A stretch of 46,405 bases of DNA from a virus (Duplodnaviria; Heunggongvirae; Uroviricota; Caudoviricetes), in IMG/VR virus record IMGVR_UViG_2687453454_000004. One strand, written 5' to 3'. Positions 42,474-43,410 of the stretch are shown in pieces. The translations under genes were made by a program, and so were the position numbers. How positions within the stretch are numbered: position 1 is the first letter of the stretch; the number at the start of each line of letters is the position of its first letter. The notes under the pieces were generated by a model, which saw only the letters and a program-made list of their open reading frames with translations, had not been told where the DNA came from and did not search any database.

Positions 42474-42615
42474 ACGGAAGCGATAATTTTAACTATTGCC
42501 GCCCCTATAAAGAACCATTAAACAATAACGTGACGTAGCTATTGATAGTAAATGAAGCACTTGCAAAATAATTGCATTGCGTATATATACACACATGTGT
42601 TGTATTACAGCGATA

Positions 42616-43410
42616 ATGGTAAAGCAAATGATTAACTCTGAAGCAATTGAGCAACTAATGTGGCTATGGTCCTTATTTGACATTAAATTCTTATCTATTC
42701 TTGCCGCTGCCTTCACTATATATTTTGGCGTGCAAAAAATATCAAAAAAGGTGACAGTGTCGTATTCAGCAAATGCAAGTGGAATATATGACATGCATAT
42801 ATCAACCATAATCCTGAATAATAAAAGAGATAATGCAATTGCTATATCTTCAATCAATATGGAGGTTGAAGGTAAAGGGATACTACAAGTTATTAAATTT
42901 GACTCTCCTCTTCTTTTAAAGAACTATGATTCTTTAAAAGTTGAACCACCAAAATTTAGCAGCCTTTACAATAATGATGGCGTAGTTAAGTTAGATATTT
43001 CTGATAAGTTTCATTTTTATATAATCACGACATCTGGAGATGAAATTAAATGTATTTCTGAAAATAAATATGTAGCACCAAACATGGAAAACAAAATAGC
43101 TACAGACATAAGAAAATTTAATGGCATTGTCTTAACAAACAGAATGTCTTATATTTTTTTCTATGCAAATGACAACGGAGAGAAATACTGCATAATAGAT
43201 GTTTCATTGTTCATAAATGGTGACAACCCATTTCATTTTAATTTTTTAAAAGAAGATGAATTAAGAGATTTTTCTAGCATCCTTATTAGTTACGGATATC
43301 ACCAACAGTTTAAAAGTTATGCATTGTTTAAAATAGACAACCATCTTGCTCCTTCTTTGGTTTTAAATAAATCAATGATAGAAAATAATATTATTGAAAT
43401 GAATAAGTAA
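42616..43410 (+). CDS. AT-rich membrane-anchored hypothetical protein (moron)
   Basis: About 265 aa from ATG 42616 (track starts at TTG 42577); N-terminal TM helix (LMWLWSLFDIKFLSILAAAFTIYFGV); very low GC. Confidence 0.6.
   Translation: MVKQMINSEAIEQLMWLWSLFDIKFLSILAAAFTIYFGVQKISKKVTVSYSANASGIYDMHISTIILNNKRDNAIAISSINMEVEGKGILQVIKFDSPLLLKNYDSLKVEPPKFSSLYNNDGVVKLDISDKFHFYIITTSGDEIKCISENKYVAPNMENKIATDIRKFNGIVLTNRMSYIFFYANDNGEKYCIIDVSLFINGDNPFHFNFLKEDELRDFSSILISYGYHQQFKSYALFKIDNHLAPSLVLNKSMIENNIIEMNK

Follow-up and report, generated by a model that had tools for sequence, protein, structure and literature searches.

Phage-carried inner-membrane exclusion proteins such as T4 Imm and HK97 gp15 are encoded by single accessory genes that are often AT-rich, and classical exclusion proteins are mostly small or multi-pass and are not known to have a large folded cytoplasmic domain. 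A different layout is found in Cam1 (type III CRISPR), Cap15 (CBASS, cyclic-oligonucleotide-based anti-phage signaling system), and the Pycsar transmembrane (TM) effectors, which join one or more N-terminal TM helices to a compact cytosolic beta-rich sensor, are encoded next to a signal-making enzyme, and depolarize the membrane through oligomerization of their helices. SNIPE (PD-lambda-1), a nuclease bound to the membrane, cuts the DNA of phages as it is injected, and PhoA/LacZ-alpha fusions have placed its N-terminus in the periplasm, followed by one TM helix and cytoplasmic working domains (PMC13190303). P22 SieA is an inner-membrane protein sufficient for exclusion (PMC10883804), encoded by a single phage-carried accessory gene that protects the host. 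Here, we analyzed a gene for a hypothetical protein of 260 amino acids (aa) at 42628..43410 of the 46,405-nucleotide (nt) Caudoviricetes record IMGVR_UViG_2687453454_000004, the whole of which is referred to as the window. It is established that this gene forms a mobile cassette on its own, that its product is a bitopic membrane protein whose confidently predicted fold is unmatched, and that its family recurs in defense hotspots and cargo slots. We favor some role in anti-phage defense or in exclusion, exerted at the inner membrane, with a probability of roughly 0.55–0.6.

The protein resembles SNIPE in its single-gene, Escherichia coli defense-type design; an N-out single-pass anchor like that of SNIPE is predicted here from a charge asymmetry in 104 of 120 aligned members, and SNIPE is the precedent that such an anchor with a cytoplasmic working domain can operate as a defense in E. 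coli. It differs from SNIPE in having no DUF4041 or GIY-YIG match in Pfam and no PADLOC match, and in combining a beta-sandwich with an alpha/beta domain within 260 aa, in which no nuclease motif was recognized. It likewise shows no sequence or profile similarity to SieA, SieB, Imm, or gp15 in Pfam and PHROGs, and, different from the classical exclusion genes, members of its family are not confined to phages but turn up in a restriction operon and on plasmids as well. A stripe of small residues along the helix recalls Cam1, Cap15, and the Pycsar effectors; in contrast to these, no cyclic-nucleotide or oligoadenylate synthase is adjacent in about 15 contexts inspected, and neither CARF, SAVED, or cNMP-binding homology (Pfam) nor a matching Protein Data Bank (PDB) fold was identified. 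A minimal beta-barrel sensor was likewise not recognized. With the P2 old-tin and P4 hotspots and the lambdoid morons the locus shares its small size, high turnover between backbone genes, and foreign composition, and one relative occupies the P2 gpQ-gpA locus and another a position next to int in a P4-like element. The slot between yfdQ and prtN that it occupies is, however, not among the published hotspots (PMC9122126) and elsewhere holds mostly nucleotide-metabolism genes rather than known defense genes.

The gene, its family, and selection

42628..43410, + strand: coding sequence for 260 aa, stop included in the coordinates; PHROG 14996 member, RefSeq WP_047654657.1

The open reading frame (ORF) list of the window contains an ORF on the + strand at 42577..43410, which an earlier interpretation made from the letters alone (the sequence-only reading) had taken as the gene. 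The ORF is real and ends at 43410; its start had been placed 51 nt too far upstream. On sequence grounds, ATG 42628 is the most likely start (260 aa plus stop, replacing TTG 42577 and 277 aa), because it is the start of the RefSeq gene ("hypothetical protein"), because all orthologues begin with M-I/L-N at this position of the orthologue alignment, and because a TGG/GGA Shine-Dalgarno (SD)-like motif lies 6–10 nt before the ATG in seven orthologous loci. The TTG start was rejected on the orthologue alignment together with the motif upstream of the ATG. An antisense ORF of 122 aa with a TTG start (42489-42857, − strand) covers the 5′ third of the gene; it has no RefSeq annotation and is probably a by-product of the AT-rich sequence.

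The GC content of the gene is 0.290, and 0.261 at third codon positions (GC3), compared with 0.492 for the window, 0.444 for the +/-5 kb flanks, and 0.41–0.50 for the neighboring genes. No other 783-bp window has a GC content as low (mean 0.494, standard deviation 0.067). The description of the gene as very AT-rich relative to the flanking early genes is thus accurate, and its composition is foreign in the sense used for morons and hotspot cargo.

The protein matches PHROG 14996 (function unknown) over its full length (residues 1-260 on profile 1-260, E 1.9e-177), as do all 120 aligned relatives. PHROG 14996 has no name, function, or literature, and membership is therefore silent on mechanism. 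Searches with the protein against Pfam, NCBIfam, PADLOC, and PDB sequences gave no match, in agreement with the earlier statement that no domain is recognizable; Pfam and PADLOC returned only scattered single marginal matches for the 120 relatives, and the family profile found nothing among PDB sequences.

A word-indexed search of 5.8 billion proteins identified 11 clusters, whose members belong to E. coli, Citrobacter, and Klebsiella. A full hidden Markov model (HMM) search of 1.84 billion representatives identified 225 clusters at 50% identity across Proteobacteria, of which 141 reach E <= 1e-10; with few exceptions, these proteins are 235-275 aa long and have a matching layout. Members occur in Providencia, Pseudomonas, Acinetobacter, Pantoea, Buttiauxella, and a Syntrophobacteraceae metagenome-assembled genome, and all are annotated as "hypothetical protein"; a second word-indexed search with the family profile added nothing new and again returned hypothetical proteins only. 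The gene had been called an orphan, which holds in that no relative has a name and fails in that the proposed remote-homology search revealed a family of 225 clusters and a full-length PHROG membership. The alignment of 120 sequences has no conserved stretch of 7-10 residues. A tblastn search of 50,697 deposited phage genomes gave nothing for the protein, while P0028, a distant relative, hit a single Acinetobacter phage, which is temperate. The accession WP_047654657.1 was not found in the literature searched.

Between orthologues, the proportion of nonsynonymous differences (pN) was 0.22-0.42 and that of synonymous differences (pS) 0.65-0.85, giving a pN/pS of about 0.3. The synonymous substitution rate (dS) is saturated in most orthologue pairs, and selection was read from pN/pS and from the sole unsaturated close pair, in Pantoea, with a nonsynonymous-to-synonymous rate ratio (dN/dS) of 0.29. 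The gene is real and under purifying selection.

Predicted structure and topology

42682..42738, + strand: TM helix, residues 19-37
42751..43050, + strand: beta-sandwich domain, residues 42-141, beginning about 4 residues past the helix
43093..43407, + strand: C-terminal mixed alpha/beta domain, residues 156-260, packing on the sandwich

The Kyte-Doolittle profile has one 19-residue maximum (1.68, residues 13-31), with all other windows at <=1.2. AlphaFold, given the family alignment, produced a model with a predicted local distance difference test (pLDDT) score of 94 and a predicted template modeling (pTM) score of 0.83, which comprises a helix at residues 4-16, a kink, a TM helix at 19-38, and a poorly predicted loop at 147-151. 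The hydrophobic peak and the modeled helix both bear out the single N-terminal TM helix of the sequence-only reading, and the structure prediction suggested there yielded a confident fold with no relative in the PDB: Foldseek of the model retrieved no match at E <= 1e-3 from the PDB, and a search of the BFVD viral structures gave none at that threshold.

The helix is the best-conserved segment of the family, with a mean column entropy of 2.28 compared with 2.5-2.8 in the globular parts. Small residues (G/S/A/T) form a stripe at positions 23/27/30/34 (i, i+4, i+7, i+11), position 30 being S/T/A/G in 119 and position 34 A/G/S/T in 101 of 120 members, and K37 is near-invariant (K/R in 118/120). 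Such a stripe is typical of helix-helix association, suggesting that the helix is more than a passive anchor. Conserved residues of the sandwich include an N65-x-K/R67-D68 loop, P94, K98, E/D101, and S111; C142 is near-invariant across the family; and N165, G166, Y175, Y179, a Gly column at 194, a Trp column at 200, and N205 are conserved in the alpha/beta domain.

K/R residues are more numerous in the 15 positions following the helix than in those preceding it in 104 of 120 members; net charge is +2.0 after the helix and -0.9 before it. Together with the positive-inside rule, this bias predicts a periplasmic N-tail and a large cytoplasmic domain (N-out/C-in), from which we infer a bitopic inner-membrane protein with a short N-tail outside and a module of ~220 aa inside. 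A cleavable signal peptide was considered and rejected: the N-tail is net acidic (MINSEAIEQL), and the hydrophobic stretch extends over ~20+ residues before QKISKK.

A cassette in a variable prophage slot

42452..42473, + strand: upstream hairpin, AAATGCCCC-TGCG-GGGGCATTT, just 3′ of the yfdQ stop
42484..42627, + strand: cassette-specific upstream region of 144 nt; homology to other prophages stops near 42483
43414..43429, + strand: weak downstream stem, CCGGG-TGCAG-CCGG(T); right edge of the variable slot

The yfdQ-gene-prtN segment was compared with 5,426 complete E. coli genomes by megablast. Ninety-eight genomes hold the whole arrangement, and among those listed the gene is 96.5-100% identical. 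The yfdQ part alone, up to window position 42488, occurs in about 2,700 genomes, and matches to prtN only begin at 43415. Alignments with other prophages break near 42483 and 43414, and the mobile unit is therefore ~930 bp long (42484-43414), consisting of the 144-nt leader and the ORF and ending 4 nt past the stop. In other prophages, the slot between yfdQ and prtN contains yfdR (5′-deoxynucleotidase) with small phage genes or, in one, yfdR with a PAPS-reductase-domain gene; another dusA prophage with a matching prtN/Panacea end carries a dATP/dGTP pyrophosphohydrolase and a 3′-5′ exonuclease there. The gene is thus present or absent between conserved backbone genes, as morons and hotspot cargo are. 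This variable slot, the foreign composition, and the occurrence of relatives as single-gene cargo of mobile elements lend good support to the earlier suggestion of a moron-like insertion, and the sequence comparison firmly points to a self-contained, horizontally mobile cargo cassette. In strain E89 (NZ_CP121157.1), the cassette region is split by IS1X2, and the match falls into two pieces spanning 1,787 bp.

The upstream hairpin is strong (-19.4 kcal/mol; z -3.75 in a shuffle comparison). It is retained in prophages that have yfdR in place of the gene, and the first ~50 nt of the query, which form the yfdQ 3′ flank, match 2,336 E. coli genomes whatever comes next. Because it is conserved regardless of the gene that follows, this hairpin can be assigned to the backbone, as the yfdQ 3′ flank and left edge of the slot, and not to the cassette. 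Having no T-run behind it, this hairpin was not among the calls of the terminator scan, and transcription from the early promoter is likely to read through it. The downstream stem is not significant (z -0.59; 54/200 shuffles fold equally well) and is likewise backbone sequence common to prophages with other cargo, where homology resumes, conserved with prtN. The gene was said to have its own flanking hairpins; neither belongs to it.

In the leader, TTGATA-16-CAAAAT (42542-42569) and TACACA-18-GATAAT (42588-42617) are sigma-70-like hexamer pairs, and the GGTAA of 42618-42622 is SD-like. Directly 3′ of the gene, between it and prtN, there is no significant hairpin, and a terminator-like hairpin follows prtN (43732-43757; z -4.52). 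From this arrangement, the gene and the PrtN-type gene are probably co-transcribed as one unit at the 3′ end. A search of 42300-43800 against Rfam gave nothing in the cassette; the matches obtained were all below threshold and fell on the terminator hairpin that follows prtN.

Genomic contexts of relatives

In every one of the about 15 contexts, all inspected by hand, the relatives are lone genes in accessory DNA, distributed over about a dozen unrelated mobile-element contexts. All homologues examined have a GC content 7-21 points below that of their flanks, including in Pseudomonas of 66% GC. The Klebsiella relative lies in the early region of a podovirus-type prophage, after an MT-A70 methylase, and Citrobacter relatives lie directly upstream of xis and int in a P4-like satellite and in other integrative islands (two with CbtA/CbeA). 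The Providencia relative is located in a P2-like prophage between portal/ogr and gpA; the gpQ-gpA interval of P2 is the old/tin anti-phage hotspot (Rousset et al. 2022, PMC9122126). On a MobA plasmid, a relative overlaps the 3′ end of an MmeI-type restriction-modification (RM) gene between Phd/YefM and FitA/VapC-type pairs, and another separates hsdS from RhuM/hsdR in a type I RM operon that also has a HEPN/MNT pair. Relatives on Acinetobacter plasmids are neighbors of MazEF together with an HNH protein, or else of ParA. In Pseudomonas and in a metagenomic P22-like prophage, the relative is the sole opposite-strand gene, just upstream of the terminase/portal block; further relatives occur in the nin regions of lambdoid prophages, adjoin the integrase in Acinetobacter phage ABMM1, and are found with HEPN_LA2681, DUF4062, and an MvaT silencer in an island. 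Among the IMG/VR relatives, which were found with the close-family alignment, the gene lies <=3.4 kb from the contig end in 19 of 26 viral contigs.

The neighbors differ from context to context: a 113-aa gene begins 2 nt past the homologue stop in Klebsiella, and the adjacent genes encode 477 aa in Citrobacter, 361 aa in Providencia, and a 427-aa HNH protein on the Acinetobacter plasmid. These four neighbors have no PADLOC matches and no shared Pfam family, their sequences not having been compared with each other directly. A conserved partner gene was rejected, as no neighbor is kept across the contexts inspected.

Three further observations were made around the homologues. DUF4062 proteins are encoded within about 2 kb of two distant members on metagenomic contigs (L013, 2936-3913; L033, 5650-6702), a proximity that could reflect a recurrent type of island or a weak association, and on L033 a gene for MvaT, an H-NS-like silencer, directly follows the homologue. 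A lambdoid prophage (L031) with a 53%-identical homologue carries, on the opposite strand, a 654-aa AAA_15/AAA_21 ATPase gene (7940-9904, − strand) between the Q antiterminator and the holin, a typical defense-type insertion at the late promoter.

Possible function and alternative explanations

The sequence-only reading had raised the possibility of a superinfection-exclusion or abortive-infection factor. This defense reading, which we regard as plausible, is a case of guilt by association: relatives occupy the P2 hotspot and a type I RM operon, neighbor MmeI-type and toxin-antitoxin genes, and lie close to integrases. The same prophage carries a SLATT plus UG17 reverse transcriptase (RT) defense pair and a Panacea toxin-antitoxin-like pair, which we also count in its favor. 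In the mechanism that we propose, the protein would act as a one-protein sensor-effector defending the lysogen against phages or other mobile elements. Since the module begins ~4 residues past the helix, it should be held at the inner leaflet, where a phage component could be bound; recognition of such a component at or near the membrane may then cause the conserved small-residue helices to associate and disturb the membrane, and the resulting depolarization would lead to abortive infection. Expression in the lysogen, the topology, defense, its trigger, oligomerization, and membrane damage are all steps that we infer. Membrane disruption is preferred because the helix is conserved beyond the need of a passive anchor and because the layout recalls Cam1, Cap15, and Pycsar; as a specific mechanism, it is possible, though on balance doubtful.

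Several points weigh against defense. No homology to a known defense protein was detected: PADLOC 2.0 has no family at E <= 1 for the protein, and for the 120 relatives it gave only two marginal matches, to BrxA (0.0016) and REase_II (0.0099), with catalogues extending to 2023. The accession was absent from the DefensePredictor supplements searched, and no catalytic or ligand-binding motif was recognized in the protein. The association derives from about 15 hand-inspected contexts and is not a statistical enrichment. Because the gene lies in a pL-type early operon, it could serve the lytic cycle rather than the lysogen. Expression in the lysogen is further put in doubt by promoter-like sites that are no commoner than in shuffles (6 found, 7.4 expected) and by the composition, since DNA of 29% GC is a likely H-NS target. 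Cam1, Cap15, and Pycsar, the known membrane effectors with a single helix, require a partner that produces their signal, and none is present here.

The alternative that survives best, though we judge it unlikely, is a non-defense accessory membrane protein with an early lytic function (host takeover or a kil-like envelope effect) or a lysogenic-conversion or fitness role. Many phage morons serve non-defense roles, and the gene lies downstream of, and co-oriented with, yfdP-yfdQ in the early-left operon, within reach of read-through past a hairpin without a T-run; nucleotide-metabolism genes in the same slot of other prophages, promoter-like sites at chance level, and the lack of defense homology in PADLOC point the same way. 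An early phage role, however, fails to explain the relatives in the type I RM operon and beside the MmeI-type enzyme and toxin-antitoxin pairs on plasmids, those in integrative islands that have no lytic cycle, and the opposite-strand placement in late regions of P22-like prophages. Nor does it fit the tblastn results, in which none of 50,697 deposited phage genomes matched the protein and the distant P0028 matched one temperate Acinetobacter phage only.

Within the defense hypothesis, the main rival to membrane disruption is superinfection exclusion by a block of genome entry, in which the inner-leaflet module would hamper translocation of phage DNA, by acting on tape-measure or ejection proteins or on a host channel, and infected cells would survive. 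We consider this improbable, more so than a non-defense role. It draws on the same context evidence as defense in general; experiments on SNIPE have shown the N-out/C-in single-pass topology that is predicted here, the very short linker between helix and domain places the domain where incoming DNA emerges, carriage by temperate phages near int/xis resembles that of classical exclusion genes, and SieA is an example of a sufficient inner-membrane protein. Against it, the protein has no homology to SieA, Imm, gp15, or SNIPE in Pfam, PADLOC, or PHROGs, the presence of relatives within a type I RM operon, and also on small plasmids, is less typical of phage-specific exclusion genes, and a simple tether would not need such strong conservation of the helix.

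Far less probable is that the protein works as part of a multi-gene system, partnered by the PrtN-type gene, which lies 37 nt downstream, or by the Panacea pair. The tight prtN spacing with no significant hairpin between, and the adjacent genes of the Klebsiella (113-aa), Citrobacter (477-aa), Providencia (361-aa), and Acinetobacter (427-aa HNH) relatives, would be consistent with it, but no neighbor is conserved across contexts, the neighbors have neither PADLOC matches nor a shared Pfam family (not directly inter-compared), prtN and the Panacea pair occur without the gene in other dusA prophages, and several homologues are solitary genes on the strand opposite to their surroundings. The reading as an ORF arisen by chance, or as a pseudogene in decay, within AT-rich DNA, to which the composition, the weak SD motif, the purely "hypothetical" annotation, and the overlapping 122-aa antisense ORF might point, is effectively refuted by full-length homologues (235-275 aa) in 225 clusters, a pN far below pS, the pLDDT of 94, and the 96.5-100% identity among the E. 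coli genomes listed of the 98 with the full segment.

The host prophage and neighboring genes

542-1579, − strand: dusA
1473-1585: attL, copy of the dusA 5′ segment
1668-2765, + strand: tyrosine integrase
3297-5196, + strand: SLATT plus UG17 RT pair, just inside attL, beside the integrase
43447..43728, + strand: PrtN/AlpA-type small DNA-binding protein (Pfam PF11112, 3e-23; RefSeq), 37 nt downstream of the gene
43776-43949, − strand: 57-aa ORF, between prtN and the 139-aa ORF
43989-44408, − strand: 139-aa ORF, 4-nt overlap with the Panacea gene; PHROG 19071, no Pfam
44405-44977, − strand: Panacea/SocA-domain antitoxin-like gene, 190 aa (Pfam PF13274, 1.8e-18)
45229..45341: attR, second copy of the dusA 5′ segment, with about 80% identity to that at 1473-1585; in RefSeq a partial tRNA-dihydrouridine synthase

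The window contains a 43.8-kb lambdoid prophage integrated at dusA in an E. coli chromosome and ends with the host gene yjbM (DUF2713). Over 41615-43728, which takes in yfdQ, the gene, and prtN, its sequence is 100% identical to E. coli strain YJ3. The gene order is a cro-like ymfT (− strand), a cI-like ymfK (39826-40500, + strand), yfdP, yfdQ (41615-42439), the gene, and the PrtN/AlpA-type gene, so that its placement in the early-left arm was correct by analogy with lambda. Given the position of attR, the gene lies 1.8 kb from the prophage end.

From its domain, the PrtN-type protein is a probable excisionase or regulator. The Panacea gene and the 139-aa ORF match PHROGs 1281 and 19071 and travel with prtN in other dusA prophages; together (43989-44977) they form a putative toxin-antitoxin pair of the PanA type, its toxin unclassified, located between the gene and attR. 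At the other end of the prophage, a SLATT_5 two-TM effector of 183 aa (PADLOC RTasSLATT, 1.5e-56) overlaps the gene for a UG17-class RT of 458 aa (PADLOC RT_UG17, 1e-158); these profile matches identify a known pair of the DRT (defense-associated RT) type, which is likewise low in GC. The integrase and the PrtN-type gene lie at opposite prophage ends, and attP would therefore lie between them in the free phage. The att geometry implies that in the circular phage one contiguous accessory block would extend from the gene through prtN, the Panacea pair, attP, and int to the RT pair, which would bring both pairs to within a few kb of the gene.

Two other regions of the prophage were noted. Between ymfK and yfdP, ~700 bp (40500-41199) of high GC (0.53) have no RefSeq gene and contain a 110-aa ORF (40597-40929, − strand; no Pfam match) and the 5′ part of a 182-aa ORF with a TTG start; this might be an early-left promoter/antitermination region or a small RNA. 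A second low-GC pocket, in the late/lysis region, holds a 141-aa ORF (32562-32987, − strand) with no Pfam or PADLOC match, downstream of an orphan N6/N4 DNA methyltransferase (30932-31984), which may be a further small cargo gene.

Implications

We tentatively propose, at somewhat less than even odds, that the family represents an undescribed single-gene anti-phage family of Proteobacterial phages, satellites, plasmids, and restriction loci, with an N-out/C-in fold that has no solved relative and that would act either by membrane collapse, upon sensing a phage component and assembling with itself via the conserved helix, or by a nuclease-free block of entry. It is plausible as a defense candidate that can be tested cheaply, one of many such, with no surprising feature as yet. 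If the gene gave no phenotype, it would provide a documented case in which defense-hotspot context alone is misleading. If it is protective, it would be a compact membrane-tethered defense module of 260 aa and one gene, unrelated in fold and sequence to the catalogued systems, and both the yfdQ-prtN slot and, in dusA-integrating coliphages, the region around attP would be flagged as sites where defense cargo accumulates. Many "hypothetical proteins" in mobile elements of Enterobacterales, Pseudomonas, and Acinetobacter (225 clusters, no Pfam entry) would then become annotated genes, an annotation that would matter for predicting the host range of phages used in therapy.

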